Source: Eledone cirrhosa (taxonomy: Eukaryota). From it: a stretch of DNA of 64,000 nt. The notes under the pieces were generated by a model, which made no database searches, was not told the DNA's origin, and saw only the letters and a program-made list of their open reading frames with translations. Within the stretch, counting starts at the first letter, position 1. Each line of letters opens with the position of its first letter. The stretch is taken from the NCBI GenBank assembly GCA_964016885.1, contig OZ024742.1, positions 10,168,001 through 10,232,000 of the forward strand, written 5' to 3'. Below are positions 5,644 through 40,212 of the stretch, in pieces. Both the position numbers and the translations under genes were made by a program.

Positions 5644-5661
5644 ATTATTGATAATAATATT

Positions 5662-15365: not shown

Positions 15366-17905
15366 GTAACATATGTCTATATATGTCCCTATATTGTTGT
15401 TGTTGTCTATGTTATTGTCTCAGGTGTAACATATGTCTATATATGTCTGTATATTATTGTTGTTGTCTATGCCATTGTCTCAGGTGTAACATATGTCTAT
15501 ATATGTCTGTATATTGTTGTTGTTGTCTATGTTATTGTCTCAGGTGTAACATATGTCTATATATGTCTGTATATTGTTGTTGTTGTCTATGTTATTGCCT
15601 CAGGTGTAACATATGTCTAAATATCTCTGTATATTGTTGTTGTTGTCTATGTTATTGTCTCATGTGTAACATATGTCTATATATATCTGTATATTGTTGT
15701 TGTTGTCTATGTTATTGTCTCAGGTGTAACATATGTCTATATATGTCCTTATATTGTTGTTGTTGGCTATGTTATCGTCTCAGGTGTAACATATGTGTAT
15801 ATATGTCTGTATAATGTTGTTGTTGTCTATGTTATTGTCTCAGGTGTAACATATGTCTATATATGTCCCTATATTGGTGTTGTTGTCTATGTTATTGTCT
15901 CAGGTGTAACATATGTCTATATATGTCTGTATATTTTTGTTGTTGTCTATGTCATTGTCTCAGGTGTAACATATGTCTATATATGTCCCTATATTGGTGT
16001 TGTTGTCTATGTCATTGTCTCAGGTGTAACATATGTCTATATATGTCCCTATATTGGTGTTGTTGTCTATGTCATTGTCTCAGGTGTAACATATGTCTAT
16101 ATATGTCCCTATATTGTTGTTGTTGTCTATGTCATTGTCTCAGGTGTAACATATGTCTATATATGTCTGTATATTGTTGTTGTTGTCTATGTCATTGTCT
16201 CAGGTGTTACATATGTCTATATATGTCCCTATATTGTTGTTGTTGTCTATGTTATTGTCTCAGGTGTAACATATCTCTATATATGTCCCTATATTGTTGT
16301 TGTTGTCTATGTTATTGTCTCAGGTGTAACATATGTCTATATATGTCCCTATATTGTTGTTGTCTATGTTATTGTCTCAGGTGTAACATAACTCTATATA
16401 TGTCTGTATATTATTGTTGTTGTCTATGCCATTGTCTCAAGTGTAACATAAGTCTATATATGTCCCTATATTGTTGTTGTTGTCTATGCCATTGTCTCAG
16501 GTGTAACATATGTCTATATATGTCTGTATATTGTTGTTGTTGTCTATGTTATTGTCGCAGGTGTAACATATGTCTATATATGTCTGTATATTGTTGTTGT
16601 TGTCTATGTCATTGTCTCAGGTGTAACATATGTCTATATATGTCTGTATATTGTTGTGGTTGTCTATGTTATTGTCTCAGGTGTAACATATGTCTATATA
16701 TGTCTGTATATTGTTGTTGTTGTCTATGTTATTGTCTCAGGTGTAACATATGTCTATATATGTCTGTATATTGTTGTTGTTGTCTATGTTATTGTCTCAG
16801 GTGTAACATATGTCTATATATGTCCCTATATTGTTGTTGTTGTCTATGTTATTGTCTCAGGTGTAACATATGTCTATATATGTCCCTATATTGTTGTGGT
16901 TGTCTATGTTATTGTCTCAGGTGTAACATATGTCTATATATGTCTGTATATTGTTGTTGTTGTCTATGTTATTGCCTCAGGTGTAACATATGTCTAAATA
17001 TGTTTGTATTTTGTTGTTGTTGTTTATGTTATTGTCTCATGTGTAACATATGTCTATATATGTCTGTATATTGTTGTTGTTGTCTATGTTATTGTCTCAG
17101 GTGTAACATATGTCTATATATGTCCTTATATTGTTGTTGTTGTCTATGTTATTGTCTCAGGTGTAACATATGTGTATATATGTCTGTATATTGTTTTTGT
17201 TGTCTATGTTATTGTCTCAGGTGTAACATATGTCTATATATGTCCCTATATTGGTGTTGTTGTCTATGTCATTGTCTCAGGTGTAACATATGTCTATATA
17301 TGTCCCTATATTATTGTTGTTGTCTATGTCATTGTCTCAGGTGTAACATATGTCTATATATGTCCCTATATTGGTGTTGTTGTCTATGTCATTGTCTCAG
17401 GTGTAACATATGTCTATATATGTCCCTATATTGTTGTTGTTGTCTATGTCATTGTCTCAGGTGTAACATATGTCTATATATGTCTGTATATTGTTGTTGT
17501 TGTCTATGTCATTGTCTCAGGTGTTACATATGTCTATATATGTCCCTATATTGTTGTTGTTGTCTATGTTATTGTCTCAGGTGTAACATATGTCTATATA
17601 TGTCCCTATATTGTTGTTGTTGTCTATGTTATTGTCTAAGGTGTAACATATCTCTATATATGTCCCTATATTGTTGTTGTTGTCTATGTTATTGTCTCAG
17701 GTGTAACATATGTCTATATATGTCCCTATATTGTTGTTGTTGTCTATGTTATTGTCTCAGGTGTAACATATGTCTATATATGTCTGTATATTGTTGTTGT
17801 TGTCTCTGTTATTGTCTCAGATGTAACATATGTCTATATATATGTCTGTATATTGTTGTTGTTGTCTATGTTATTGTCTCAGGTGTAACATATGTCTATA
17901 TATAT
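15363..17905. repeat. 60-bp minisatellite array, about 42 copies
   Basis: Unit CAGGTGTAACATATGTCTATATATGTC(CC/TG)TATATTGTTGTTGTTGTCTATGTTATTGTCT; aligns column-wise with the 60-base lines; one 3-bp deletion near 16360. Confidence 0.98.
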
Positions 17906-18964: not shown

Positions 18965-20325
18965 GAGAAGTGTGTGGGAACAGAGTTCAAAAGGTGTGTA
19001 GGGGAGTGGTGGAGAGACATATAGCGAAAGGAAACGGTGCGAATGAAAAAAAACAAATAAAGATAATAAATAGAAATAAAGCATGATCAAAATACAAGGA
19101 ATGAGAAAATTTAAAAATAAAGGCATGATCAAAATAAACTGAAATTAAAAGGGGGGTAAACAGGTGGTGGAAGGGTGTGGGGTGAGTAGGGGTGGTGGCG
19201 GGTGGAGTGGGGAGAGGGAGACGGGGTGTCCGAGCGGGAAGGGCTGAAGGTGGTGTGTGTGGTTAGGTGTGCGTGTGTGTGTGTGTGTATGTGAAAGTGA
19301 GGGTTGGGGGAAGAACGGGGTTGCATGTTCAGGAAGGTGTGTGTGGGGGGTGTTTTTTGGGGTCGGAGTGTCTGTGCGTGTGTGGATAGGGGGTGGGGGG
19401 AGAGGAATCAGGAGGCTGAGGGTGTAAATATGTGGTGGGAAGCACGTGTGTGTGGTTTAAGCGTGTTGTGGGTGTGGGTGGCGTGTGGATAAAAAAATTT
19501 GTTTGGGGTGTGTGTGTGGGTGAGTTATATAGGTGATGGCATAAGAGGATGGTTGAAAAGTTGGTAAGTTCCACGGATGTTTGGAGATTTGTTTAGAAGT
19601 CAATTTCGCGTGTGGGTAATCCAAGAAGCGGTGGTCGGAAGAGGAGAGATGTGGGGTGCGCGCGCAACAGGAAGTGGTCAGCAGTGGGAGTGCTGTGGTC
19701 AGTTGGTGCTGAGAGGTGGTCGGAAGCGCATAGCAGCAGTCGGTGGAATGAAAGGGAGGCGAGGATGTGTAGGTGTGAGAGTTGGAGTGAGGAGGGTGTG
19801 TGTGTGTGTGTGTGTATTAGTAGGGGTGTTAGTGGGATGAGTGAGTGTGGAGCGGGGAGAGAAGGGTGTGTGTGGTTCTATGGAGGGAGTGTGGTGTACT
19901 GGTGTGTGTGTAGTTTGGTGAAGAGGTGTTAGTGGGTGTTAGTATACGGGAGGTGGGGAGGGGTGGAATGCAGGTGTGAGTGGGGGTTAGTGGTGGTAGG
20001 GTGTGTAGAGTTGGTGGTGTATGAGGGTGTGTGGGTACGTGTGCGTGGGGTTGGGGGTGTTAGTGATGTTAGTTGCGTGTGGGGTGGGTGGTGTAAGTGG
20101 GTGCGTGTGTGCGTGTGATAAGGAGGGGGGAGGAGGAGAAGAGGGGAGGGAAGGGATGTTAGTATGTTAGTTGGGGAAGGGTGGTCAGATGAGGGGTGGA
20201 GTGGAGGTGTTAGTATTGTTAGTGTGGGGTGGGCGGTGAAAAGGAGGGGTGTGTTAGTGGTGGTAGTGGGGGATAAGTGTGGGGGGAGGGGGCGGTCGAA
20301 CGCTAAAGGAATAAGGGTGGGGAGT

Positions 20326-21568
20326 TCAGGCCGGGGGGAGTGTGGGTCTGTAAGATGAAGATAGTGCGTTGTTCGACCGTAAGGCGATGGGCGGGTGTTC
20401 CGTGGCACTGGAGTAGGCCACAGACTGTGAGATGGCGTGCGGAGTGTCCAGGGCCACCAAAGTGGCGGGCGATGGGGGAACTGCCCCCGAGACGAATATC
20501 CCGGAGGTGCTCCGTGACTCGATCCGCCAGGCGACGTCCCGTCTGTCCGACATAAGTCGCGCTGCACTCCGTGCAACGAAGTCCGTAGACTAGGTTGGAG
20601 GAGGTGCAGCGGAAGGCATGCCGGACCGAGAGAGAGTGGCCGTTGGGACCCTGGAAGGTGGTGGTGTTGGTGATGTGGGGACAGGTGTTGCAGCGGGGCC
20701 TAGAACAGGGGAAGGAACCGGGGGGGGAACCAGAGCGTGGGTTGGGGGGTAGGGAGCTGTGGACGAGGAGGGTGCGGGATTGCGTGCGCGTTTGAAGGAG
20801 GGGAGTGGTGGGGTTGGGAAGATGTGGGAGGTGTAGGGGTCGGACTGGAGGCGTCGGAAGAGGCGGCGGATGGTGCGGTGGAGGGGTTAGGTGGAGGGGT
20901 GGTAGGTGATGGGGAAGGGGAGACGGTGGGTGAGTGTGCGGTGGCGTGGGGTGAGGGTGGTGGAGCGGGGGATAGCACGGGCGCGGGTGAGAGCGGTGTA
21001 GAAGAGAGAGGGGGGTAACCTCTGCGGATGAAATGGCTGACTAGGGAAAGGGCCTGGGACTCGAAGTCAGCATCACGGCTACAGAGGCGGCGGATCCTGA
21101 GAAGTTGGGAGTAAGGAATGGAGAGTTTAGTGTGGGTGGGGTAGGAAGAGGTGAAGTCGAGGTAAGAGTGGGAGTCGGTGGGTTTGAAGAAGGCGGAGGT
21201 GACGAGGGAGTGGTGGGAGGGGTCGAAGGCGACGGAGATGTCTAAGAAGTGGACGTGGGTGGTGGAGATAGAGGTGGTGAAGTGGAGGGAGGGGTGGAAG
21301 GAGCAGAAGAAGGAGAGAAAGGAGTCGAGCTGTACTCGGGTGAGGGTCGTGGCTCCGATACAGTCGTCAATGTAACGACCGTACAGTTCGGGCGTGGGGC
21401 CGGTGTACTGGGCAAAGATTTGGGCCTCAACATGGCCAACAAAAAGGTTGGCATAGTTCGGGCCCATTCTTGTGCCCATGGCTACCGCCGTGACCTGTTG
21501 GTAAAACTCACCCGAGAAGGAGAAACAATTTAGGGTGAGGACCAGCTCGGCGAGGCGAAGGAGGGTGG

Positions 21569-21570
<2 letters not shown>
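20326..21570 (-). pseudogene. Penelope-like RT + GIY-YIG, frameshifted
   Basis: ORF 20700-21479 is in frame only to about RGYP; the endonuclease lies in another frame at about 20330-20620. Confidence 0.85.
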
Positions 21571-21634
<64 letters not shown>

Positions 21635-21771
21635 TAGGAACGCGATGTCAAAATATCATCATTATGTTTATATATATATGTCAACATGAATGGACCTGTT
21701 ATGTTTATCTAAAGACATTTTTTCCAATTCCATCCCACCTGTCCTATCAATCTATTTTATTTCTCATTATT

Positions 21772-22091: not shown

Positions 22092-22549
22092 ATTTATCGT
22101 GTTTAAAGTATTCTAAATTGTGACTTTATATTATATACAGAAAACAACAGATAGGGTCAATGGATTATCTCCCTTGGTTATGTCCTGTCACCAATGTCGT
22201 TCAGTATGATATTATAATATTAAATTATTGTGTACAGTTCTTAGGTGCACGACATCTTATCAAAGGTGCATGTACAGTACATAGAATAATATACAAATGT
22301 CAGGGAAGTAAATATTCTAACAAATTACACATTTAAAAATAGAAACAGTTATTTACATTATTAGAGCCAGGATCTATGTTTTTCATCCTTCTGAGATTAA
22401 TAAATTAAGTATTGGTATTGATGTAAAACAGGTTGGGTCCCAACACAATAAAACCAATAAATGAAATCAATAACAAAAAATATTCCCAAGAGTATCACAT
22501 ATGCATATTTATAGATTCATAACCAGGTATGTGTGTAAATTGATAGATA

Positions 22550-22998
22550 TGTTTCTTTTTATTTGCCACCAGGGCATCAAAAAGTGGGACAAGTACAATG
22601 GGGGGAGTTTACACAAAAAGGCGAGTAAAGAAAACAAATAACAAATATAAAATTAACAATAAAGTCCTCAATAGGGAGGGGGCGTTTGGGAGGTCGCACA
22701 CACACCCGAAAAAAGTGTGCAACCCCTTCTCCTCAGGAGCACAGAGAGAGGGTGCTCCCTCGTTCCTTCCTCTTTTCCACCTACAGGCTGATGTAAAGAA
22801 AAGGCCCATTCACACGGGCCATTCTCGCCACTTTCACCCACCTTTCATAAAAACGACTGGGGTGCAGCACCTCTCTCTCCATCCTGATCCTTCTTCCGAA
22901 ATGATATCGGAAGAAACGGATCAGTTGTTGGCCAGAGAGAAAGGTGCCTGACCTGAGTCCTTTCAGACGCGTCCACCATACAACCTCTTGGATATTAC
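22550..22998 (-). mobile_element. Tx1-clade LINE copy 1 (3' fragment) with 15-bp TSD
   Basis: ORF2 C-terminus (EVVWWTRLKGLRSG...) plus 3' UTR; GTAAATTGATAGATA duplicated at 22535-22549 and 22999-23013. Confidence 0.9.
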
Positions 22999-23038
22999 GT
23001 AAATTGATAGATAGATAGATATATAGATAAACATAGAC

Positions 23039-23106
<68 letters not shown>

Positions 23107-23110
23107 GGAC

Positions 23111-23146
<36 letters not shown>

Positions 23147-23174
23147 GGACAGATAGATAGATAGATATATAGAT

Positions 23175-23207
<33 letters not shown>

Positions 23208-23259
23208 TAGATAGCTGGACAGACAGACAGATAGATAGCTGGACAGACAGACAGATAGA

Positions 23260-26200
23260 TATCTTTCTTTATTTGCCACAGGGGCGTACAAAAATGGGAC
23301 ATTACAATACGTGAGGGCGGGGGTTAACATTAATAAATAACAATAAACTATATATAATAAAATAACAATTGAAATCCCCCGTAGGGGGGAACGTTACTAC
23401 AGGGTTGTTTTACACCCCGTGGATAGAACAACCCTCAACGCCAGGAACACGTTTTGTAGGTGTTCCCGTCTTCCCTCTGTTTATCTTCCTCAACCTACAG
23501 GTTTATATACAGAGAAGGCGCATTCACTCGGGCCATTTTTGCCACATTCACCCACCTTTCAGCGAATTTACTGGGGTGTAGCACCTCTCTCTCCACTCTC
23601 ACCTTCCTTCTGAAGTGATACTTAAAGAAGGGCATAAGTTGTTGTCCGGAGAGAAAGGTGTTTGCCCTCAGTCCTTTTAACCTCGTCCACCATATTACCT
23701 CTTTCGCCATAGCCACCAGACAGAGGAAAACCGCCTCTCCTTCGTTCTTAAACGAAGGCGGCGGGGTGATCCTCACGATGGACTCGGCTGACAACTGGAT
23801 GCGTCCCACATGTGACAGCAGCTGTTCGACATAATTCCACAGGTCGGTCACCCCTGGGCACTGAACAATTGCGTGCAGAACGGTTTCAATGTCCTGCTCG
23901 CATCTTGGACAGGTCCTTTTGGCAGGATCTCTGCCAGGGCGTCTGTGCCTGTAGATTTTGTCTCGAACTGGTAGAGCTCCTCGGTAGCACTGCCAGGCCA
24001 GAGACCTCTGGAAGTTATCCATAAGCCCTGGACGGAAAGTCCTCCCGAACAGACTGGTCAGCCCGTCCTCCTCGATGCCTAGAGTTTCCCCGAGAACGTC
24101 GTCGCACTTATCCTCCACTAATCCCCTATAGAATGTCAAAGTAGAGTCTCCGCTGATTGCCGTTTCCGCTTGGTAGAGGGCTGTGAGCGTCTGTAGGCAT
24201 TCGAGGTGCCAGGCTCCCATTTTCGGTCTTCGCTTGACCTAGGACTGCAGCTCTGTTAGTGAGACGAGTTGTGGAAGAGCTTGTCTCACAAACGACAGCC
24301 ACACCGGTTCACCGGTCAGAAATACCTGGAGATGGCGTAGCCTCAGCGCATGTTTGCGCATCATCAGCCACGGCCTGCCCAGGTCTCCGTTAGAAGGGTG
24401 TTGACAGCAGATGGATCTCCTCACCAATGGAGCCTGTTTCTTCCAGAGGAACTTGAAGAGTAGGCGTTCCATTTTGGTAAGGTATTCGCGGGGGCAATGC
24501 ACAACTGTCAAGCGGTAGTAGATGACGGACGCTATGTAAGTGTTCGCCACCTCCGCTCGACCTTTCAAGGACAGTTTGCACTCAGCCCACTTCTGGGTGA
24601 GTGCAAACAACTTCGCCGTGACCTCGTTCCACTTCTTGTCCACCTGGAGGTCTGGACCGAACCACACCCCGAGCAATTTCACCGGTCCTTCTGTCCAGCG
24701 TCCAACGACACTGTCGGAAGGCATGGGTTTGCCTCTCCATGTGCCGAGTTGCAAACCGACAGACTTGTTTGGGTTTAGTCTTGCTCCTGTCGACGTTTCG
24801 TATTCCTGTAATAGGTTGCCGATTACACTGATTTCCGAGGTTTTCGACACCATTACGGTTATGTCGTCGGCATAGGCTGTCGCCGCTTTCCGCAGTCCTG
24901 GTTCGATCGGGATGCCATGCAACAGCTCCAATTTCCGCAGTAACGGCTCGAGAGTCAGTACATACAGAATGGAGGAGAGAGGGCATCCCTGACGGATGAA
25001 ACGCATGATTTGGAATGGCTCTGATAGGTATCCATTCCCCTTGATTGCCGAGCAGATGCTGGTGTGCATGACAGCGATCCAGCCTCTGAAGACGGGACCG
25101 AAGCCGGCCGCCTTGAGAACTGCTTCCAAGTATTGATGGTCGACCCTATCAAATGCTTCAGACTGATCTAAATTGATCAGAGCCCCACCAAAGCCATGTT
25201 TACACCCTACCCTCTCTATGATGTATCGCATGAGGTGGAGGTTGTCGTGTATGGACCTGGTCGGGATTGCACACATTTGGGCTTCCCCTACCAGGTTCTC
25301 GACGACAAGCGCCAGCCTTGCTGCTAACACCTTGGCCAAAATCTTTAACTCTGTGTTGAGTAGAGCTATGGTCCTGAAATTGCTTATCTCATCCCCTTTG
25401 TTCTCATCTTTCATGACCAGCGTTACTACGCCTCTGCCTACAGAACTGGGAATCCTCCCGTTCTGCTGCCAGTTGCAGTAAACCGCTTCGAAGACGCCAG
25501 AGAACAAGTCTGGCATGCCTATATAAAACTCATAGGGTAGACCATCTAAACCGGGTGATTTGCGTTTCCCGCAGCGGCCTAGGGCATCTTCTATTTCTCC
25601 CGCTGTGATCAGCCTTTCGCAACTCTCCGCATCCGTGCTCGAGAGTCGCGGTACGCCGTCGAGGTAGTAGCTGAAGTCCATCACCTCGCTAGATGTACCG
25701 CTTTGCCCGAACAGTTGTGCAAAATGCTGCTGGAAGGCCGCGCACATCTGCTTGGATTCAAGTATAATGCGTCCATCTTTGTCTTGCAAAGACCGAATTG
25801 TGGATTTGTTGCCACTTTTCGCCTCTGCCACTCGGGCCCAGCTAACAGCTTTGGCTCCCTCGTTTCTTAGAGCACGTGTTCTAATTCTGACAATACAACC
25901 TTCGTGTTTCATGTTGAAGAACTGGTCTAGTGCCGTTCTCGCCGCTAGCACGTCAGCTGTACTGCCATTCCTAAGTGCCTCTTCTATTTTAGCTACCAGT
26001 TCCTTTTCAGTTTTGTTTTTTTCTAAAGCTACTTCCTTGCTAAATGCTATTGATTCTATTCTAATTGCTCTCTTGAGAGGGCTCCACCACCTGTTGTTGA
26101 CGATCGCCCCCGTCAACTGGCACTTAACTAAGGTGCTAATCCGTTTACTGTAGGCCTTACGCGCCGGGAGCGACATGTTTCGCTTCCAGTATCCGGGTCC

Positions 26201-27247
26201 CTGTCTATGTGTTCTATCAAGGTTGACTACGCAGGTGACTAATTTGTGGTTTGAATAGGCAACCATGTGCATTTGTGGACAGCTTAATGTTTCCTTATCA
26301 TTCTGTCTAATTAAAAATCTATCTAAATACGATCTAGAAGACCCAGTGCGGTTGCTCCACGTCCACAGTGGTGCACTTGGGAAGTCTAGTCACTATCTAT
26401 CAGCCAGTTGGAATTGGCTGATGAGATTTTTGAGGCTATTACACCCCCCTCTATTATCACAAGCTCCTACATAGTCCCAACGTGCGTCTAAGATGCCATT
26501 TCAGTCCCCCAATAACACTAAGGAGCGAGATGTTTCTAGGAATGGCTCCAGACGCTTTAAGAACTCTGGTCGCGATGTCCCAGTTGGGGCATATACGGCC
26601 ACCAGTCTGAAAGCTCCACTTTCACTACCATTCACGTCCAGGACCACCAGGCTGCCCTCCGGGTCAAAGTGAATCGTCTATATTTTGAGATCCAAGTTTT
26701 TTCGAAACAGAACAGCAACTCCCCCTCCACCACCTGGCTGACAGAGAGATGCGTAGATCTCAAAATAATCGAACATGGGGGTTAGCTGCTGCTTGTCGTG
26801 AATTCTGGACTCGGTGATGGTTATCACATCTATACAATGTGACCTGAGATCACTTAAAACCTGGCCCTGTTTCCATGACATGCCCAGGCCACGTACATTC
26901 AAACATCCAGCTTGTATAGTCGCCATGTTGGTGAAGAAGAGTTAAGGAGAGAAAAGGCAGGAACACTTACCTTTTCGTTTCCTGGAGGTCGGGTTGTTCG
27001 ATCTCCATGTCCAGATTGGTGGTGTTTGGGGAGGGAGGGAATCATTTTAGCAGAACACGGTTGAGGGGCTTTTGGCAAGGGGGGCCCACATCATGTCGGA
27101 GGTTCTCTTTTAAAGTTTGATAAGTTTGAGGTTTGGTGGTGGGTCGTTGTTGGGGAAAGTTTTCCCTTCCGTTTGTATTGTGGGGTCCTTTCGGACAGTT
27201 TCCACCTGTTCTTTGTTTCTTGTTTTTATGTATGTGTAGTGTGTTTT
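23260..27247 (-). mobile_element. Tx1-clade LINE copy 2 (divergent subfamily): end of ORF1 plus complete but disrupted ORF2
   Basis: ORF2 from ATG 26926 (GCLNVRGL, APE endonuclease), RT (PGLDGLP, RQGCPLS, YADD) and C-terminal CPRC...H...C to about 23495, with in-frame stops; bounded by GATA/GACA runs. Confidence 0.93.
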
Positions 27248-27309
27248 ATAGATAGACAGACAGACAGATAGATAGACAGACAGACAGATAGACAGATAGC
27301 TGGACAGAC

Positions 27310-27384
<75 letters not shown>

Positions 27385-27386
<2 letters not shown>

Positions 27387-28448
27387 TGTTTCTTTTATTT
27401 GCCACAAGGGCATCAAAAGTGGGACAAGTACAATGGGGGGAGTTTACAAAACAAGGCGTCCTCAATAAGGAGGAGGCAATAACAATATATAAAAATAAAA
27501 TAAAATATAACAAAAAATAGAATTATAACAAAATCCTCAATAGAGGATTTTGTTATGAAATATAACAAAAAATAGAATTATAACAAAATCCTCAATAGAG
27601 GATTTTGTTATAAAATATAACAAAAAATAGAATTATAACAAAATCCTCAATAGAGGATTTTGTTATAAAATATAACAAAAAATAAAATTTATAACAAAAT
27701 CCTCAATAGAGAGGAGGCGCCTTGGGGGGTCGCACACACCCCCGAAAAAAGTGTGCAACCCTTTTCCTCAGGAGCACAGAGAGGGGGTGCTCCCTCGTTC
27801 CTTCCTCTTTTCCACCTACAGGCTCATGTAAAGAGAAGGCCCATTCACACGGGCCATTCTCGCCACTTTCACCCACCTTTCATAAAAACGACTGGGGTGC
27901 AGCACCTCTCTCTCCATCCTGATCCTTCTTCCGAAATGATATCGGAAGAAACGCACCAGTTGTTGGCCAGAGAGAAAGGTGCCTGACCTCAGTCCTTTCA
28001 GACGCGTCCACCATACAACCTCTTTCGCCATGGCTATTACGCACAGAAACACCGCCTCTGCTTCATCTTTGAAGGGGGGAGGCGGCTTGATCATTACAAT
28101 AGACTCGGTGGTCAACCGGATCGGTCCCACCCTTGACAGCAGTTGTTCGACATAGCCCCACAGATCGGCTACGCCCGAGCAGTGTACCAATGCGTGTGCA
28201 ACGGTTTCCTCGTCGCACACGCATCTGGGACAGATCTTTTTGGCGGGGTCCCTACCCGGGCGCCCGTGTCTGTAGAGCCTTTCTCGAACGGGTAAAGCTC
28301 CTCGGTAGCACTGCCAGGCCAGGGACTTCTGGAAGTTGTCCATAGGTCCCGGGCTGAATGTCCTACCGAACAGGCCGGCCAGTTCGTCCTCCTCCATGTC
28401 TAGGGCTTCTCCGAGGGCGTCGTCGCACCTGCTGCGTACCAGCCCTCT

Positions 28449-28449
<1 letters not shown>
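27385..28449 (-). mobile_element. Tx1-clade LINE copy 3 (5'-truncated)
   Basis: ORF2 C-terminus nearly identical to copy 4; (GATA)n on both sides. Confidence 0.92.
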
Positions 28450-28483
<34 letters not shown>

Positions 28484-28747
28484 TGTTTCTTTTATTTGCC
28501 ATCAGGGCATCAAAAGTGGGACAAGTACAAAGGGGGGAGTTTACACAAAAAGGCGTCCTCAATAAGGAGGAGGCAATAACAAAATATAAAAATAAAATAA
28601 AATATAACAAAAAATAAAATTTATAACAAAATCCTCAATAGAGAGGAGGCGCCTTGGGGGGTCGCACACACCCCCGAAAAAAGTGTGCAACCCTTTTCCT
28701 CAGGAGCACAGAGAGGGGGTGCTCCCTCGTTCCTTCCTCTTTTCCAC

Positions 28748-31700
28748 CTACAGGCTTATGTAAAGAGAAGGCCCATTCACACGAGCCATTCTCTCCACTT
28801 TCACCCACCTTTCATAAAAACGACTGGGGTGGAGCACCTCTCTCTCCATCCTGATCCTTCATCCGAAATGATATCGGAAGAAACGGACCAGTTGTTGGCC
28901 AGAGAGAAAGGTGCCTGACCTCAGTCCTTTCAGACGCGTCCACCATACAACCTATTTCGCCATGGCTATTACGCACAGAAACACCGCCTCTGCTTCATCT
29001 TTGAAGGGGGGAGGCGGCTTGATCATTACAATAGACTCGGTGGACAACCGGATCGGTCCCACCCTTGACAGCAGTTGTTCGACATAGCCCAACAGATCGG
29101 CTACGCCCGAGCAGTGTACCAATGCGTGTGCAACGGTTTCCTCGTCACACACGCATCTGGGACAGATCTTTTTGGCGGGGTCCCTACCCGGGCGCCCGTG
29201 TCTGTAGAGCCTTTCTCGAACGGGTAAAGCCCCTCGGTAGCACTGCCAGGCCAGGGACTTCTGGAAGTTGTCCATAGGTCCCGGGCTGAATGTCCTACCG
29301 AACAGGCTGGCCAGTTCGTCCTCCTCCATGTCTAGGGCCTCTCCGAGGGCGTCGTCGCACCTGCTGCGTACCAGCCCTCTATAGAATGTTGCGGTGGAGT
29401 CTCCACTGATAACCGGATCCGCCTGCCAGAGGGCGGTGAGCGCCTGGGCACACTCAGTGTGCCAGGCGCCCAGTTTTCTCGGTCTTTGCTTGACCCAGGA
29501 TTGCAGCTCGGTGAGTGAGACGAGTCTGGGAAAGGTTCGTCTCACAAGCGAGGCCCACACCGGTTGACCGGTGAGGAATACGTAGAGGTGCCGTAGCCTT
29601 AATGCGCGTTTACGCATCATTAGCCACGGCATCCCAGCCTTGCTTTCGAAGGGTGTTGACAGCAGATGGATCTCCTCACCATAGGAGCCCGCCTCTTCCA
29701 AAGGAATTGGAAGAGTGCGCGCTCCATCTTGGTGAGGGTTTCCCTTGGGCAGGGCACTACGGTTAGGCGGTAGTAGATGACGGACGCTATGTAGGTGTTC
29801 GCCACCTCCGCCCGACCTTTCAGGGATAGTTTGCACCTGGCCCACTTCTGGGTCAGTGCAAACACCCTGTTCGTAACCTCCGCCCAGTTTTTCTCCACCT
29901 GGAGGTCCGGTCCGAACCAGACCCCGAGCAACTTCACCGGGCCCTCCGTCCAGCGTCCGACGACGCCATCGGAGGGCATCGGTCTGACCCTCCACGTGCC
30001 GAGTTGCAAACCGATCGACTTGTCCCGGTTCAGCTTAGCCCCTGTGAACCTTTCGTACTCCTCCAGTAAGGTGCCGACCGCCTCGATTTCGGAGGCCGTC
30101 GACACCATTACTGTCACGTCATCGGCGTAGGCCGACACCGCTTTCCGCAATCCCGGTTCCAAAGGGATGCCCTGCAACAACTCCAACTTCCGCAGTAGTG
30201 GCTCGAGAGTCAACACATACAGAAGGGAGGAGAGAGGGCACCCTTGTCGGATGGACCGCGCGATTTTGAACGGCTCCGAGAGGTAGCCGTTCACTTTGAC
30301 CCTAGAGCAGATGTGGCTGCTGTGCATGACATTGATCCAGCCCCTGAAAACGGGTCCGAACCCTGCCGCTGCTAGCACCGCATCCAGGTAACTATGGTCG
30401 ACCCTATCGAATGCCTTAGATTGATCCAAGTTGATCAGGGCCCCACCAAAGCCGGGTTCGTTCCCAACCCTCTCTATGATGTATCGCATGAGGTGGAGGT
30501 TATCGTGGATGGACCTGGACGGGATAGCACATGTCTGCGCATCTCCCACCAGGTTGCCCAGGACAAGCGCCAACCGCTTTGCTAGCACCTTGGCCAAAAT
30601 CTGTAACTCTGTATTTAGCAGAGTTATGAGCCTGAAGTTACTTATTTCGTTCCCCTTGTTCTCGTCCTTCCTCACTAGCGTGACTACGCCCTTGGTCACA
30701 GTACAGGGAATTCTCCCGTTCTGTTGCCAGTTGCAGTAGGCCGCCTCGAGGAGATCGGGGAACAAGTCCGGCATAGCTAGATATAATTCGTAAGGAAGAC
30801 CATCGAGACCCGGGGATTTGCGTTTGCCGCATTGGCTCAGCACGTCCTCTATCTCAGCGGCCGAAATCGGCTCCTCGCAGGACTTCGCCTCCTTGTCCGA
30901 GAGGCGCGGCAGGCCGTCGAGGTATGGACCGAAGTCCACGTTCCCAACCGGCTCCCCGCCCCTCCCGAACAGTCGGGCAAAGTGCCTTTGAAAGGCCTCA
31001 CACATCTGCTTAGGCTCAAGAATCGCCCGTCCATCCAGGTCTCGCAAAGACCGGATGGTGGATTTAGTTCCACTGTTGGCCTCTGTCACGCGGGCCCAGC
31101 TAACAGCTTTGGTCCCCTCGTTCCCTAGAGCACGTATTTTACTTCGGACAACGCAACCTTCGTGCTTCGCGTCGAAAAACTGGCTCAAAGCCGTTCTCGA
31201 CGCTAGCACTCTGGCCACGTCGCCGCTTCTAAAAGCCTCTTCTACTCTATCTATTAGCTCCCTTTCCTTCCTATTCCTATCCGCAGCTAGAACCTTACTA
31301 AATTCTATCGAGACTACTCTAATCTCTCTCTTTAGAGATACCCACCACCTGCTGTTGACGATCGCTCCAGTCAACCGTTCCTTAACTAACGTACTAATCC
31401 GATCCCTGTAGGCTCTACTTGCCGGCAAGGACAAGTTGAGCTTCCAGTAACCGGGGCCCTGTCTATGCGTTCTATCAAGGTTGACCATGCAGGTCACCAA
31501 CTTGTGGTCTGAATAGCCAACCATGAGCATTTCTGGACAACTTAAAAAGTCCCTGTCCTTATTTCTAACTAAAAATCTATCTAGGTACGACCTAGATGAT
31601 CCGCTGCGATTTGACCAAGACCAGGTTGGCACCGTCGGAAAATCTAGTCGAAATCTATCGGCCAGATCAAATCGGCCGAGTAACCCCTTGAGGCTTTTGC

Positions 31701-32184
31701 ACCCCTCTCTATCGGGACATGCCCCTGCATAGTCCCAACGTGCATCCAGGATACCATTCCAATCCCCCACTAAAAGCAGGGAACGGGACGTCCCTAGAAA
31801 AGACTCCAGACGCTGGAAAAAGTCGGGCCGCTCAGTCCCAAAAGGGGCATATGCGGCTACCAGCCTAAAGGCTCTACCTTCACCACTGCCAAGGTCCAGC
31901 ACAACCAGTCGACCCCCTGGGTCCAAGTGAACTATCTGTGTTGCAAGGCCCATATGTTTTTGCAGCAGAACGACAACCCCACCCCCACCTCCGGGCTGAC
32001 AGAGAGATGCGTGCATCTCAAAGTCGTCGAAGGTGGGGGCTAGCTGTCGCATGCTGCTGATCCGGGCATCGCAGATAACCATCACATTTATAGATTGTGA
32101 CCTGAGGTCATTTAGAAGCATTGCTTGCTTCCAAGACGAGCCCAGGCCACGCGCATTTAGACACCCTACTCTTAGCACAGCCAT
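28748..32184 (-). pseudogene. Tx1 ORF2 (APE endonuclease + reverse transcriptase + C-terminal zinc motif)
   Basis: VGCLNARGL, LVGDWN, SYLDRFL, SDHKL; PGLDGLPYE, LDQSKAFDRVDH, RQGCPLS, YADDV; CPRC...ETVAHALVHC. One frameshift near 29640 and a premature TAG at 28952. Confidence 0.93.
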
Positions 32185-32208
32185 GTTGGTGGTAAGGAGA
32201 AAAGGCAC

Positions 32209-33854
32209 TTACCTCTCTGCGTCCCGGGAAACGGGCCGCTCAATTTCCATGCTGGTTGGGGATGGGTTGTTGGGTGGGGTGGTGGTTTGTGGAAGTGAAG
32301 GGGCATCGGTGTGTTGTGGGTTTGGGGTGTTTGTGGTTGAGTGGGTGTCTGGGTGGGGTGGGGTGGGGGGTGAATTTTTTTAGGAGGACGCGGTTGATTG
32401 GTTTGGCGCAGGGGGGGCCCACGTCCTCCGTGAAATTTATTTTCAGTGTTTTGTACAAGTGCATTGGGACTTTTATCATTTTTAAATGAGGTAGTCCCAC
32501 AGCAGTTTTAAAGTTAGGCCCTTCAGTGGACCGAAGGGTTTGCTGAAATTGTTTTCCGTAATTCTTTGTTGTCTGTGTTCATGTATGTATATTGTAAGGT
32601 CTTTTTTTGTGTAGCAGATAGTGTTGTGTGACAGGGAGGGGTGGTTTGTGTGTAGTTTGTGTTCTCTTGGGGGAGGGTTAAAGTTAACATGTGTGTCTGT
32701 GGTGCGTCTCCTCTTCTTTCTTTTTATTTGTTGGAAGGGATCTTTTTCGTCTTGCGACGAAAGGGGTTCGTCTTCCTTGTTGGGTGGGAGGGGTATGTTT
32801 TCTGGTAGTGTTTGCGGTGTGTGTGTTTTTGTATTTGTTCTGGGTGGGGAGGGATTGGGTGGGACGGTATTCTGTGTTATTTTTTCACGTGTTTGTTGTT
32901 GTTGTTGTGGTGGTGGTGGTGGGGTTGTTGGTTTTTGTTGTTGTTGTTGTTGTGGTTGTTTTTGTTGTTGTTGTTGGGGTGGTGTTGGTGTTGGTAGCAG
33001 TGTTTTTTTCTGTGTGAGCTGGGGACAGGCAGCCCTCAGGTGACCTCTATTGCCACAGAGGTAACAGGAGGGACGCCTACCCTCCACAATAATGTTGAGG
33101 TGGGTACGGTCATCCAGCATGACGCGCTCAGGGATTTGGGCGATGCGTTCTGGCCTTATTTGGGTCAGAACTTCGATGCTCGTTCCACTGAACGCGTCGC
33201 CGGATGCCTTCCCTATTGAAATGAGGTTGTCCTCGTCTAAATTGAGGAAGCCGGTTAGTAACCACCAGTAGTTTATGTTTGGGGTGATGGTGGTTATCCA
33301 TATCCTCTGGGTTTTTTTACCCATGTAGGTGGGGAAGAAGGTGTAGTGTGTGGACCGAATTGGCGACACAGAGTATTTTTTCGCCGCCAATTCGTCTTTC
33401 ATCAATATGGATAAACTCCCATAGAGTTTATCCTTTTGTATAAAAGTGATATCTCTCATCGCGTCTTTCAAGACTAACTGAATTTCGGCTTGAGATGGTT
33501 GCGCTGGTTTTTTTGTTTTATTTAAAATTGTTCGGAATACGACAGTTCGTAATTCCGTCTGTTTTTTTAGTTCTGGAGGTGAATGTATAGAAAACGAACC
33601 GTTTTCGCCAAAAGATACATATTTCTTGGCTTTTTCCAGCATTTCTTTTGCTTTTGAAATGTCTTCAAGCACATAAGCGACTGATAATTTAGCCGTTTGT
33701 GCAAAAGATATTTTGTTTTCGCTTTGGATTTTAGTATTGTTTTGTTTCTCGTCGTTTGAGTTGTTTTCATCTTTGTTGTTGTTGTCTTTCTCGTTTGGTG
33801 TGTGGATACTTGTGACGTTTGTGTTGTTGTTGTTTTTGTTGTCTTTATTGTTGC

Positions 33855-33885
<31 letters not shown>

Positions 33886-34108
33886 GTTTTCAAATTCTTG
33901 TGTAGTTGTGGCTACATCTAGTGGTCGGTCAACAGGTGAAGACAATTCTTCCTCTCTCTGACCTCTGCCTTTGGCATCTGCTGCTGTGACAGTGGCAGGG
34001 GGAAGCTGTGAGTATGACTTCCCCTTTCCTTCTTTGATTGATGGTGAAGATGCTTCGCCATTTTTCTCAAAATAGGGTTTTTCGAAGTTTTTCGAAAGAT
34101 AAAATGTT
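32209..34108 (-). pseudogene. Tx1 ORF1 (gag-like, zinc knuckle), frameshifted near the 3' end
   Basis: CYLCGNRGHLRAAC (CX2CX4HX4C) in ORF 32482-33945; N-rich and Q/P-rich tracts; frame open upstream to about 34108 without an ATG; C-terminus MEIERPVSRDAER* at 32209 has counterparts in copies 2 and 6. Confidence 0.8.
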
Positions 34109-34310
34109 CACAATACTATTTCGCCCAAAGGCGCAGAATATTTTGAGAGACCGACCAGATCAAAATTTGACCTGGCAGTCCCTCTACAAAATGGTACAAA
34201 AATGAAAGTTTACAGTTTACAATTTCCGTATGAATTTAAACAAAAACTTACCGAGCGAGCTCAGCACATGTGTCCATCGTAAAGAGAGATAGATAGATAG
34301 ATAGATAGAG

Positions 34311-34373
<63 letters not shown>

Positions 34374-34418
34374 CAGAGACATATAGAGACAGACAGAAAG
34401 ATAAACACAAATAGACAG

Positions 34419-35820
34419 ATATGTTTCTTTATTAGCCACAGGGGCACAAAAGAAGGGGACAAATACAAAGGTGGAAGTTTACATACAATACAAACGTGTA
34501 AAATACTATCACAAATGCAACTTAAAAATTAATCGATTTTCCCCAATAGCGGGAGACATTACATATGGGTAACGCATACCCCCGAATAAAAAATGTGCAA
34601 CCCTCATCTCCAGGAGTACGAAGTGTTTGTACTCCTTTCCTCTCCTCCTCTTTTTCCTCAACCTACAGGCTGATATAGAGAGAAGGCCCATTCACTCGGG
34701 CCATTCTCGCCACTTTCACCCACCTTTCATAAAACTTGCTGGGGTACAGCACCTCTCTCTCCATCCTGATTCTTCTTCCAAAGTGGTATTTGAAAAAAAG
34801 AATCAGTTGTTGACCGGAGAGAAAGGTGTCTGACCTCAGCCCTTTCAGCCTTGTCCACCATACAACCTCTTTCACCATAGTTATCACACAAAGGAAAACC
34901 ACCTCTCCTTCGTTTTTGAAAGAGGGTGGGGGTTTGATCATGACAATGAAATCGGTGGTCAACTGGATTGGTCCCACCCGCGACAATAGTCGTTCCACAT
35001 AGCCCCACAGGTCGGTGACGCCCGGGCAGTGTATGAATGCGTGCGCAACGGTTTCTTCGTCTCGCACGCACCTCGGACAGGTCTTTTTTGCAGGGTCCCT
35101 GCCCGGGCGCCCATGTCTGTAGAGCTTGCCTCGAACTGGTAGAGCTCCTCGGTAGCACTGCCAGGCCAGGGACTTTTGGAAGTTGTCCATCGGTCCCGGG
35201 CGGAAGGTCCTACCGAACAGACTGGCCAGTTCGTCCTACTCTACGCCCAGAGTTTCACCGAGCACGTCGTCGCACTTGCTGCGGATCAACGCTCTATAGA
35301 ATGAAGACGTGGAGATGCCGCAGCCTGAGCGCGTGTTTGCGCATCGTCAGCCACGGCATCCCCAGCCCTGCGTTGGAAGAGCGTTGGCAGCAGATGGATC
35401 TCCTCATCAAAGGAGCCCGCCTCTTCCAAAGGAATTGGAAGAGCGCGCGCTCCATTTTGGCGAGCGTTTTGACTGGACAAGGCACGACGGACAAGGCACG
35501 ACGGTCAAGCGGTAGTAGATGGCGGACGCTATAAAAGTGTTCGCCATCTCCGCTCGACCTTTCAAGGATAGTTTGCACTCGGCCCCATTCTGGGTGAGTG
35601 CAAACACCTTGGCCGACACCTCGTTCCAGTTCTTCTCCACCTCGAGGTCCGGACCAAACCAGACTCCGAGAAGCTTTACCGGTCCTTCCGTCCAGCGTCC
35701 GACGACGCCATCGGAAGGCATCGTTTGCCTCTCCACGATCCGAGTTGCAAACCGATGGACTTGTCCCGGTTCAGCTTCGCTCCTGTGAAACTTTCGTATT
35801 CCTTCAGTAAGGTGCGGAAT
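34419..35820 (-). mobile_element. Tx1-clade LINE copy 5 (third subfamily; 5'-truncated, internal deletion near 35300)
   Basis: ORF2 C-terminal ORFs 34663-35190 and 35407-35736; distinct 3' UTR; GATA runs on both sides. Confidence 0.9.
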
Positions 35821-35821
35821 G

Positions 35822-35889
<68 letters not shown>

Positions 35890-35892
<3 letters not shown>

Positions 35893-38628
35893 TTCTTTTT
35901 ATTTGCCACCAAAGGAATTGGAAGAGTGCGCGCTCTATTTTGGCGAGCGTTTCCCTTGGGCAAGGCACAACGGTCAGGCGGTAGCAGATGACGGACGTTA
36001 TATAAGTGTTCCCCACCTCCACCCGACCTTTCAGGGACAGTTTGCACTCGGCCCACTTCTAAGTCAGTGCAAAGATCCTGTCGTTACCTCACCTTAGTTC
36101 TTCCCCACCTGGAGGTCTGGTCCGAACCAGACCCCGAGCAACTTCACCGGGCCCTCCGTCCAGCGCCCGACGACGGCATCGGAGGGCATCGATCTGCCCC
36201 TCCACGTGCCGAGTTGCAGACCGATCGACTTGTCCTGGTTCAGCTTAGCCCCTGTAAACCTTTCGTACTCCTCCAGTAAGGTGCCGATCGTCCCGATTTC
36301 CGAGGCCGTCGAAACCATTACTGTTACGTCATCGGCTTAGGCCGACACCGCTTTCCGCAATCCCGGTTCCAACGGGATGCCCTGCAGCAACTCCAACTTC
36401 CGCAGCAGTGGCTCTAGAGTCATTACATACAGAAGGAAGGAGAGAGGGCACCCTTGTCGGATGGACCGCGCGATTTCGAACGGCTCCGAGAGGTAGCCGT
36501 TCACCTTGACCCTAGAGCAGATGCGGCTGCTGTGCATGGCAGTGATCCAGCCCCTGAAAACGGGTCCAAGGCCTGCCGCCGCTAGCACCGCATCCAGGTA
36601 ACTATGGTCGACCCTATCTAACGCCTTAGATTGATCCAAGTTGATCAGGGCCCCACCACAGCCAGGTTCGTTCCCAACCCTCTCTATGATGTATCGCATG
36701 AGGTGGAGGTTGTCGTGAATGGACCTGGATGGGATAGCAAATGTCTGCGCATCTCCCACCAGGTTGCTCACGACAAGCGCCAACCTCTTTGCTAGCACCT
36801 TGGCCAAAATCTGCAACTCTGTATTTAGCAGAGTTATGGGCCTGAAATTATTTATATCGTCCCCCTTGTTCTCGTCCTTCCTCACTAGCGTGACTACGCC
36901 CTTGGTCACAGCACAGGGAATTCTCCCGTTCTGTTGCCAGTTGCAGTAGGCCGCCTCGAGGAGATCGGGGAACAAGTCCGGCATAGCTAGATATAGTTCG
37001 TATGGAAGACCATCGAGACCCGGAGATTTGCGTTTGCCGCATTGGCTCAGCACGTCCTCTATCACAGTGGCTGAAATCGGCTCCTCGCAGGACTTCGCCT
37101 CCCTGTCCGAGAGACGCGGCAGGCCGTCGAGGTATGGACCGAAGTCCACTTCCCCAACCGGTTCCCCGCCACTTCCGAACAATCTGGCAAAGTGCTTTTG
37201 AAAAGCCTCGCACATCTGCTTAGGTTCAAGGATCACCCGTCCATGCTGGTCTCGCAAAGACCGGATAGTGGATCTACTCCCTCTTTTGGCTTCTGTCACG
37301 CGGGCCCAGCTAACAGCTTTGGTCCCCTCGTTTCCCAGAGCACGTATTTTGCTTCGGACGATGCAGCCTTCGTGTTTCGCGTCGAAGAACTGTCCCAAGG
37401 CCGTTCTCGACGTTAGCACTCTGGCTACGTCGCCGCTTCTAATTGCCTCTTCTACACTATCTACCAACTCCCTTTCTATTTGAGGCTAACTCCCTACTAA
37501 ATTCTATAGAGACTACTCTAATCTCTCTTTTGAGAGATCCCCACCACCTGCTGTTGACGATGGCGCCCGTCAACCGCTCCTTAACTAAAGTGTTAATCCG
37601 GTCCCTCTAGGCCTTACTTGCCGGTAAGGACAAGTTGAGCTTCCAGTAACCGGGTCCCTGTCTATGCATTCTGTCAAGGTTGACTATGCTTGTGGTCTGA
37701 ATAGCCAACCATGAGCATTTTTGGACAACTTAAAAAGTCCTTATCCTTATTTCTAACTAAGAACCTATGTAGGTACGACCTAGATGATCCGCTGCGATTT
37801 GCCCAAGTCCAGGTTGGCGCAGTCGGAAAATCTAGTCGATATCTATCGGCCAGGTCAGATCGACCGATTAACCCTTTGAGGCTGTTACACCCCTCTCTAT
37901 CGGGACCATCCCCTACGTAGTCCCAACGTGCATCTAGGATACCATTCCCCACTAATAGCAAGGAGCGGGACGTCCCTAGAAAAGCCTCCAGACGATGGAA
38001 GAAGTCCGGCCGCGTTGACCCGAAAGGGTCGTAGACGGCTACCAGCCTAAACGCTCCGCCTTCACCACTGCCAAGGTCCAGAACCACTAGTCGACCCTCC
38101 GGGTCCAAATGTACCGTCTGTGTTGCGAGACCCAGATGTTTTTGCAGCAGAACGACAACCCCACCCCCACCTCCGGGCTGACAGAGAGATGCGTGCATCT
38201 CAAAGTCATCAAGGGTGGGGGCCCGCTATCGCACGTTGCTGATCCGGGCCTCGCAAATAAACATCACATCTATACGTTGTGACCAGAGGTCATTTAGAAG
38301 CATTGCTTGCTTCCAAGTTGAGCCCAGGCCACGCGCATTTAGACAGCCTACTCTTAGCATAGCCATGTTGGTGGTGAAGAGAAAAGGCACTTACCTCTCT
38401 GCGTCCCGGGTATCGGGCTGCACAATTTCCATGAGAGTGGGGGTGGGTTGTTGGGTGGGGTGGTGGTTTGTGGAAGTGTAGGGGCATCAGTGTGTTGTGT
38501 GGTTGGGGTGTTTGGAGTTGTGTGGGTGTTTGGGGAGGGGGTCGGCAAGTTTTTTAGGAGGACGCGGTTAATGGGCCCGACGCAGAGGGGGGGGGGGGGC
38601 GCACGTCCTCTTTAAAGTTGTTTTTTAT
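35890..38628 (-). mobile_element. Tx1-clade LINE copy 6 (end of ORF1 plus most of ORF2; about 1.2 kb deleted just inside the 3' end)
   Basis: ORFs 36337-37467 and 37674-38198 parallel copy 4; the terminal 20 bp (ATTTCTTTTTATTTGCCACC) join directly to mid-ORF2 (AAAGGAATTGG). Confidence 0.9.
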
Positions 38629-38644
38629 TAGATAGATAGATAGA

Positions 38645-39473
38645 TATGTTTCTTTTATTTGCCACTAGGGCATCAAAAGTGGGACAAGTACAAAGGGGGG
38701 GGGGGGAGTTTACACAAAAAGGCGTCCTCAATAAGGAGGAGGCAATAACAAAATATAAAAATAAAATAAGATATAACAAAAAATAAAATGTTTAACAAAA
38801 TCCTCAATAGAGAGGAGGCGCCTTGGGGGGTCGCACACACCCCCGAAAAAAGTGTGCAACCCTTCTCCTCAGGAGCACAGAGAAGGGGTTCTCCCTTGGT
38901 CTTTCATCTTCCTCACCTATAGTCTGATGTAGAGTGAAGGCCCATTCACACGGGCCATTCTCGCCACTTTCACCCATCTTTCATAGAAACGGCTGGGGTG
39001 CAGCACCTCTCTCTCCATCCTGATCCTTCTTCCGAAATGATATCGGAAGAAACGGACCAGTTGTTGGCCAGAGAGAAAGGTGCCTGACCTCAGTCCTTTC
39101 AGACGCGTCCACCATACAACCTCTTTCGCCATGGCTATTACGCACAGAAACACCGCCTCTGCTTCATCTTTGAAGGGGGGAGGCGGCTTGATCATTACAA
39201 TAGACTCGGTGGTCAACCGGATCGGTCCCACCCTTGACAGCAGTTGTTCGACATAGCCCCACAGATCGGCTACGCCCGAGCAGTGTACCAATGCGTGTGC
39301 AACGGTTTCCTCGTCGCACACGCATCTGGGACAGATCTTTTTGGCGGGGTCCCTACCCGGGCGCCCGTGTCTGTAGAGCCTTTCTCGAACGGGTAAAGCC
39401 CCTCGGTAGCACTGCCAGGCCAGGGACTTCTGGAAGTTGTCCATAGGTCCCGGGCTGAATGTCCTACCGAACA
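38645..39473 (-). mobile_element. Tx1-clade LINE copy 7 (5'-truncated)
   Basis: Nearly identical to copies 3 and 4 over the ORF2 C-terminus; GATA runs on both sides. Confidence 0.92.
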
Positions 39474-39502
39474 TTAGATAGATAGATAGATAGATAGATA
39501 GA

Positions 39503-39718
39503 TATATTTCTTTATTTGCCACAAGGGAGCACAAGAAAAGGGGACAATACAAGGACACATGCCACGGATTTTACATACAGTCGGGTAAAAAAATGTTAAC
39601 ATACAAATTCAACAATCGAAATCCCCAACAGGCGGGAGGCGTTACAAATACTCCGTAGATAGAACAACCCTCAACTCCAGGAGCGTGTTGTGCAAGTGCT
39701 TCTTTCTTCCTTTTGTGG
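39503..39718 (-). mobile_element. Tx1-clade LINE copy 8 (3' UTR only, related to copy 2)
   Basis: Same terminal motif TTTCTTTATTTGCCACAAGGG; GATAGAACAACCCTCAAC.CCAGGA shared with copy 2 (about 23420-23450); followed by GACA/GATA and (GA)n. Confidence 0.75.
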
Positions 39719-39799
39719 ACAGACAGACAGATAAATATAGACAAACAGACATACAGATAGACAGACAGATAGATAGATAAATAGATAGATAGATAGATT

Positions 39800-39875
<76 letters not shown>

Positions 39876-40212
39876 AACAGAAAGACAGACAGACACTCAG
39901 ACAGATATATCGGAGTTGCACAAATTTGATACGTGACTTGACTTGAGACTGTGTGTTGTAACAAACATCATAGAAATAACATTTTATTATTTAAAAACAT
40001 GAACATCCAAGTATATTTCGTTTTAGTTCTGAATAAATAACTGCAGTAAATAAACATGAAAGATTTTCGTCACACTTCTGCGACCTGGTCATAGACTTAC
40101 CTTTGTATTCTCTCAGTGGACATTTTCAGGTATGTCACGAAGTGTTTTGACTTTTAATAACAGAGTGAAAGGAGGTAGAATTGGTATATTTGGATAGATT
40201 GTACTGTGGTAT

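Follow-up and report, generated by a model that had tools for sequence, protein, structure and literature searches.

A 15-bp direct repeat around a 5′-truncated LINE as a probable target-site duplication at the edge of a GATA run in an octopod genome

A 449-bp LINE fragment is bracketed by an exact direct repeat of 15 bp, which we regard, with better than even confidence, as the target-site duplication of a 5′-truncated, Tx1-like LINE of the L1 group that inserted by TPRT into a GATA run, two units inward from its edge. This run likely pre-existed. The fragment is the leftmost member of a stack of eight related copies, and evidence from the other members bears more directly than the duplication itself on the question whether the GATA run was target or tail.

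The repeat, GTAAATTGATAGATA, is located at positions 22535-22549 and 22999-23013 of the window, i.e. the whole stretch of 64 kb that was analysed, on either side of the element that we term copy 1. These two sites are its only exact matches in the window. With up to two mismatches we found four matches, compared to 0.36 expected, and this number was reached in none of 100 shuffled sequences. All 15 bases are identical between the two sites, the repeat adjoins both ends of copy 1 with an offset of zero, and it is maximal, the adjoining bases being mismatched on both sides. The 15-mer is a genuine feature. Its make-up is that described in the earlier note, namely 7 bp of unique flank followed by two GATA units at the 3′ end of the element, with a long GATA run (23006-23261) continuing beyond the 5′ end. 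A larger tandem duplication, which the earlier note had named beforehand as evidence against its reading, was looked for and is ruled out as the source of the 15-mer, because the match does not extend and the 30 bp beyond it on either side are unrelated. Likewise, the unique flank is not the remnant of another family copy, as blastn and tblastn detected no family sequence on the left side of position 22550 or on the right side of position 39716.

Copy 1 lies on the minus strand and represents the 3′-terminal 449 bp of a LINE. At its 5′ end, the family sequence resumes after a skip of 7 nt and one substitution and continues to position 22999 (10 of 11 bases), which rules out that nine bases at this junction are untemplated. 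The G at position 22999 also matches the family sequence and thus constitutes a 1-nt microhomology at the 5′ junction. Since this base is common to the element and the repeat, the independent unique part of the 15-mer comprises 6-7 bp. Based on the composition of the flank, the chance that six or seven non-repeat bases recur at the junction amounts to 1.6e-3 or 3e-4, respectively; 2 million random anchored pairs gave a value of ~0.002, which rises to 0.024 when a generous 15-fold positional slack is granted. We therefore weighed whether the 15-mer could be something other than a TPRT duplication, that is, a chance match, a DNA-level duplication or the product of a staggered-break repair that captured cDNA. 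The few bases that are independent of the microsatellite, the upper chance value and the skip and substitution at the 5′ end would be compatible with such an origin; nevertheless, we deem it highly improbable, given the zero offset at both ends of the element, the unrelated flanks beyond the repeat, a 3′ junction that conforms to the family standard and a length that is typical for L1 according to the data reported in PMC2912911.

As shown in Table 1, the eight LINE copies are arranged head to tail on the minus strand between positions 22550 and 39716, with a GATA/GACA run between each pair. In a comparison of six of the eight copies over a common segment of 214 nt, the identity of copy 1 amounted to 97.7% with copy 3, 95.8% with copy 4 and 94.4% with copy 7, and to 87.4% with copy 5 and 78.5% with copy 2. 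The divergent identities among the copies indicate that at least four LINE subfamilies are present at this one site. Copy 1 would represent a late, outermost addition to the stack.

Table 1. Positions of the direct repeats, LINE copies and GATA/GACA runs in the window
Feature	Position	Strand	Remarks
Left copy of the 15-bp direct repeat	22535..22549		7 bp unique + 2 GATA; at copy 1 3′ end
Copy 1, 449-bp 5′-truncated LINE	22550..22998	-	ORF2 end + 3′ UTR; AATAAA, no poly(A)
Right copy of the 15-bp direct repeat	22999..23013		at copy 1 5′ end
Compound GATA/GACA run	23006..23261		65 units, 85% matches; left edge 4 pure units; GCTG near 23214 and 23238
Copy 2, ~4.0 kb, 5′-truncated	23262..27247	-	5′ end approximate; stops in ORF2; divergent subfamily, 76-81% to others
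GACA/GATA run	27248..27386		GCTG unit near 27299, then 19 pure GATA
Copy 3, 1.06 kb, 5′-truncated	27387..28448	-	~5-nt microhomology with the run at 5′ junction
(GATA)8 spacer	28449..28483		
Copy 4, 5.8 kb, apparently full length	28484..34282	-	5′ end approximate
GATA run	34283..34421		degenerate beside copy 5 (1 pure unit at junction)
Copy 5, 1.4 kb, 5′-truncated	34422..35821	-	internal deletion near 35303-35314; 81-82% to copy 4
(GATA)17 spacer	35822..35889		
Copy 6, 2.7 kb, 5′-truncated	35890..38624	-	~1.2-kb internal deletion 19 bp from 3′ end; 89% to copy 4
Left copy, candidate 20-bp duplication of copy 7	38627..38646		2 non-periodic bases only; weak
Copy 7, 0.83 kb, 5′-truncated	38647..39473	-	95.5% to copy 4
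Spacer	39473..39504		opens with right copy of candidate 20-bp duplication (39473-39492); 7 pure GATA
Copy 8, 212-bp 3′-UTR fragment	39505..39716	-	divergent, 68% to copy 2
Degenerate GACA/GATA/(GA)n run beyond copy 8 5′ end	39717..39905		no family sequence after

Copy 4 harbors an ORF1 at 32482-34107 (stop to stop) with a CCHC knuckle and an ORF2 that extends from 32181 and comprises APE, RT and zf-RVT. Its C-terminal part is damaged by a frameshift near 29650 and two in-frame stops. Moreover, the endonuclease motif ICDAR (region 32069-32074), which aligns with QET of the L1 endonuclease, contains a D where copies 2 and 6 have an E. Judged by this D together with the frameshift and the stops, copy 4 is probably inactive. 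Two further peculiarities concern the 3′ parts of other copies. The 3′ UTR of copy 3 contains a 55-bp unit repeated 3.8 times with 97% matches (27500-27711), which the sister copies lack. In copy 6 the last 19 bp of the 3′ end are kept (35890-35909) and are followed by a jump of ~1.2 kb upstream at a short CCA overlap, which may have arisen by internal deletion or, alternatively, by a jump of the template shortly after priming. A search of positions 18000-48000 against Rfam yielded no match.

The domain content of ORF2, with PF03372 (APE) at the N-terminus, PF00078 (RT) and PF13966 (zf-RVT, below the cut-off) at the C-terminus, and its similarity to human L1 ORF2p, the best solved relative (E 2e-43, compared to E 2e-17 for R2), place the element in the L1 group of non-LTR retrotransposons. 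ORF1 yielded a zf-CCHC match with an E value of 0.003, i.e. below the Pfam cut-off, and no Transposase_22 domain, and it scored 0.89-0.92 against the CCHC and ZCCHC3-RBD clusters of the Atlas (0.92 for CCHC). As outlined in PMC5203782, ORF1 of the Tx1 type is distinguished by a CCHC knuckle or, as a type I variant, an RRM in place of Transposase_22. With the weak scores mentioned, ORF1 thus conforms to this type, and the element appears to be Tx1-like. Among the 90 and 107 matches of the protein searches there was no named Tx1 reference, and the best named relative was a protein of Argonauta hians with 61% identity over 60% of the query, which points to a probable octopod host. In an RT tree of 28 rows, from which three of 29 candidate proteins were left out owing to short matches and which is uninformative for named clades, the copies of the window grouped in a supported clade whose other members are all unnamed proteins. 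A named fish protein whose domain order is Tx1-like was linked with values of 85/90 (unstarred) in this tree, and a comparison of ORF1 with a named fish protein gave no significant match. In bacterial and archaeal genomes, a protein scan gave 13 pattern matches, none of which was confirmed, and a scan for the junction motif gave a single match that we dismissed as chance, since there was neither homology beyond the 26-bp pattern nor a GATA run.

The window contains several repeats besides the stack. A Penelope-like fragment, in which GIY-YIG was matched weakly (E 2e-4), is present as a 1.1-kb inverted duplication of 99% identity (12937-14052 and 14250-15365), which ends where a 60-bp satellite of 42 copies begins (15363-17903). 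The ORFs 9112-10200, 20303-21647 and 42626-43144 resemble Penelope-like fragments as well; a weak GIY-YIG match (E 0.016) was obtained solely for the part 20306-21040, and the others are assigned by eye. G-rich satellites occupy positions 1-5173 and 48402-52259, with a 41-bp unit in ~125 copies and units of 35, 70 and 105 bp, and display a GC skew of 0.8-0.9. Finally, a dispersed repeat of 140-190 bp with 85-92% identity is found on both strands (5530-6307, 47443-47636, 53024-53209, 59773-59970 and 62485-62624) and is probably a SINE or a MITE.

With respect to the junctions, all eight copies contain AATAAA 6-8 nt from their end and lack poly(A), whereas human LINE-1 carries a poly(A) tail. 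On the plus strand, the 3′ junction reads GATA followed by TNTTTC in seven of the eight copies, copy 6 being the sole exception. At least one GATA unit is present at the 3′ junction of every copy, always on the same strand, although the eight copies belong to a single locus and hence are not independent loci for either repeat type or orientation. From copy 1 to copy 8, the 3′ ends bear 2, 2, 19, 8, 1, 17, 4 and 7 pure GATA units, respectively. When folded, the terminal 70 nt, taken from four of the eight copies, formed only weak hairpins (-6 to -9 kcal/mol, without a shuffled control). Directly beyond the 5′ ends, a GATA-like 24-mer (GATA/GACA score of at least 0.9) was found in six of the eight copies, compared to none at 46,526 positions outside the cluster; the two 5′ ends below 0.9 are those of copy 6, where the spacer measures only 22 bp, and copy 8, where the run is degenerate. 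Among the GATA/GACA runs of at least three units that were listed, 17 of 18 fall in the cluster. Apart from copy 1 and the weak candidate at copy 7, a further weak candidate duplication of 20 bp was seen at copy 2 (23242-23261 and 27255-27274), 7 nt off the estimated end. For copies 5 and 8 no flanking repeat of at least 8 bp was found, and the flanking matches of copies 3, 4 and 6 consist of pure repeat and are uninformative. The length of both candidates, 20 bp instead of 15 bp, and the deviating 3′ junction of copy 6 speak against our reading of the insertion.

The earlier note had put forward the 15-bp duplication as proof that the GATA run pre-existed and as the best evidence for target over tail. 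The first statement holds insofar as part of the duplication is unique flank and the run extends past the 5′ end of the element, which means that the run predates copy 1. However, the long run also borders the 3′ end of copy 2 (from 23262 onwards), and it may therefore be the tail of this copy. Consequently, the duplication alone cannot settle for the family whether the run was target or tail, and the second statement is not borne out. Two other observations at the locus seem to us to be stronger evidence for a target than the 15-mer: a GCTG unit on both sides of copy 2 and an orphan run beyond copy 8.

Of the eight runs counted, the one to the left of copy 2 contains the GCTG unit (in the context GATA-GCTG-GACA) twice, the one to its right contains it once and the six others lack it, and the 10-mers flanking this unit are found only at these three sites in the window. 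The identity between copies 2 and 3 is only 79%, and the GCTG variant is missing from copies 4 and 7, which belong to the subfamily of copy 3. It is thus unlikely that two independent tails would both have acquired it, and the simple reading would be a single degenerate run that was split by copy 2. At the other end of the stack, blastn and tblastn detected no family element after the outer run of copy 8. This run is therefore not a tail of the present family, unless the element has been deleted; it is possible that it is the tail of an unrelated element. Moreover, 18 bases at 39716-39733 are identical to the run to the left of copy 2, the longest match among seven spacers (the next one being 16), as might be expected of an old duplication enclosing copies 2-8 as a block. 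A similar irregularity, GATA followed by AACA or AATA and then by a phase shift, was observed in three runs (23026, 34400 and 39730), including both outer ones; it is suggestive of one ancestral run, albeit without a control.

These observations weigh against a scenario in which no host microsatellite existed beforehand, the long run arose by expansion and mutation of the 3′ tail of copy 2, every spacer is likewise the tail of its right-hand neighbour, and the family targets its own tails. The position of the long run at the 3′ end of copy 2, the concentration of the listed runs in the cluster and the pure runs of 7-19 units at four 3′ ends (19, 8, 17 and 7 units at copies 3, 4, 6 and 8, which fit tails or slippage) would be in line with this scenario. 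In contrast, the absence of a family element behind the run at the 5′ end of copy 8, the GCTG unit on either side of copy 2 despite the divergence of copies 2 and 3 and its lack in copies 4 and 7, and the 18 bases that bracket the block of copies 2-8 are difficult to reconcile with it, and we consider it unlikely.

We then come back to the duplication of copy 1 as the mark of a targeted insertion, for which the position of the first nick and the number of added units are to be considered. According to the earlier note, the duplication locates the nick and no repeat tail was added. Neither is determined by the sequence. Given an RNA that ends in UAUC, an idea of the earlier note itself, the nick could lie anywhere across the two GATA units and the gap would be filled in identically. 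The first nick is bounded only within 8 bp, and a duplication of 15, 11 or 7 bp combined with 0, 1 or 2 RNA-templated units, respectively, would result in the same sequence. Copy 1 would accordingly have added at most two GATA units. The second nick is fixed to within one base, owing to the 1-nt microhomology at the G that starts the right repeat. The proposed priming geometry with a plus-strand primer ending in GATA proved to be correctly oriented. Regarding the terminal ATATC, which was assumed to pair with the target, TATC could indeed do so, but the preceding A could not, as it is the first base copied; genomic copies cannot tell whether TATC belongs to the element.

Thus, the same targeted insertion may also have proceeded from a nick at the edge of the run or one unit from it, leaving a duplication of 7 or 11 bp to which one or two GATA units were copied from the UAUC end of the RNA as a short tail. 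We regard this as a less probable course of events, though one to be taken seriously. It predicts an identical sequence, and the candidate duplications of 20 bp at copies 2 and 7 might represent 16 bp plus one added unit. Furthermore, microsatellite-like 3′ ends are reported as common in other LINE clades (PMC6007223), and 5′-truncated L1 copies are described in PMC2912911 as enriched for duplications of at most 9 bp. The latter source states, however, that long duplications still predominate among truncated L1 copies and that L1 duplications peak at 14-16 bp, which places 15 bp at the mode (PMC2912911). A nick exactly at the edge would, moreover, leave the recognised repeat on one side only, and with one pure 3′ unit in copy 5 and two in copies 1 and 2, any tail must be short. 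An L1 insertion in DT40 cells likewise gave a duplication of 15 bp (PMC4245944). Prior knowledge of L1 duplications therefore favours 15 bp as the true length.

For a 15-bp duplication, we propose the following course of insertion. The APE endonuclease would nick the GATA strand among the first units of the run, no further in than the end of the second GATA. Cleavage of mRNAs normally takes place 10-30 nt after the poly(A) signal; with a donor element that resides in (TATC)n and a signal located 6-8 nt from its end, the RNA probably carries a few read-through UAUC units. These units would anneal to the GATA-3′OH primer, and reverse transcription would begin at the element boundary, whereby poly(A) would be skipped and no net unit added. 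Synthesis would stop after ~450 nt, and the 1-nt microhomology would join the cDNA end to the second nick, 14-15 bp away in the unique flank, with the result that the interval between the nicks would be duplicated. As each insertion leaves the target intact, copies can stack, and members of at least four subfamilies that inserted repeatedly into a single compound microsatellite already in place would, together with slippage of the spacers, have given rise to the 17-kb stack. Pairing between RNA and target at the start of TPRT is reported for the I factor, R1Bm and R2Ol (PMC6007223) and proposed for SART1 (PMC7265360).

Insertion of LINEs into microsatellites is a known kind of behavior, and it is possibly only the GATA/TATC unit that is new. 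In teleost fish, Kibi and Koshi of the Tx1 clade, a clade that encodes an APE (PMC4640811), are associated with (TC)n and (TTC)n, respectively, and Tx1 families of crocodilians with (TTCC)n or (TTTC)n (PMC4494074). The present family resembles them as a LINE inserted in a short pyrimidine-rich microsatellite, and (TATC)n, written on the sense strand of the element, would fit into the Kibi/Koshi series, provided that the published units refer to that strand as well. In contrast to these families, the unit is TATC, with TGTC in several spacers, instead of TC, TTC, TTTC or TTCC, and the host is an octopod and not a vertebrate. The element is thus neither Kibi nor Koshi itself. Preference for a microsatellite is defined in PMC4494074 by more than 20% of the flanks genome-wide, whereas our evidence for a target preference stems from one locus. 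The stacking follows the same logic as that described there for SINEU-3/Tx1-Mar of crocodilians, where Tx1-driven insertions occurred sequentially in tandem around a 16-bp duplication, although the target in that case is a Mariner transposon and the SINEU elements bear poly(A) tails, whereas here it is a microsatellite and poly(A) is absent.

The family shares with human LINE-1 duplications of 14-16 bp, 5′ truncation and a short microhomology at the 5′ junction as reported in PMC2912911; it differs in its CCHC-type ORF1 in place of Transposase_22 (PMC5203782) and in its GATA target in place of the TT/AAAA preference (PMC2912911). SART1 and R1Bm of the R1 clade, as repeat- or site-specific APE LINEs for which RNA-target pairing was proposed to set the start of reverse transcription, provide a model for the priming step, although they belong to another clade with another target, and SART1 inserts with a poly(A) tail (PMC7265360). 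For Octopus vulgaris, 421 insertions of 13 L1-Tx1 families with recent activity are reported, and 80 families are given in the supplement (PMC13282606); the present family may be among them. The word 'target' does not occur in the main text of that paper or in the supplement searched. We found no Tx1 family targeting GATA or TATC in the literature searched (Repbase and the per-family target tables of PMC4494074 lie outside that search). It is conceivable, at somewhat less than even odds in our estimation, that the stack belongs to an undescribed Tx1-like lineage of octopods, specific for (TATC)n and split into at least four subfamilies with up to ~25% divergence, which has neither poly(A) nor another tail, anneals through UAUC and builds stacks of several kb in single GATA microsatellites.

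Taken together, the duplication of copy 1 is in itself ordinary and owes its value to the site at the edge of the repeat. Since duplications inside pure repeats are invisible, an insertion at the edge belongs to the few whose duplication is measurable. In combination, the duplication, the split GCTG unit and the orphan run argue that GATA runs are the target of this LINE family and are not seeded by it. If this applies throughout the genome, (TATC)n would join the short list of microsatellites that are targeted by Tx1-like elements, GATA loci of the host would readily become polymorphic through large insertions, and the family would lend itself, with its simple repeat substrate, to probing the specificity of the endonuclease and the pairing of RNA and primer. 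Should the reading as a distinct octopod lineage be true, the series of TC, TTC and TTTC targets would extend to a mollusc and provide a natural series for studying how an APE reads repeat units.
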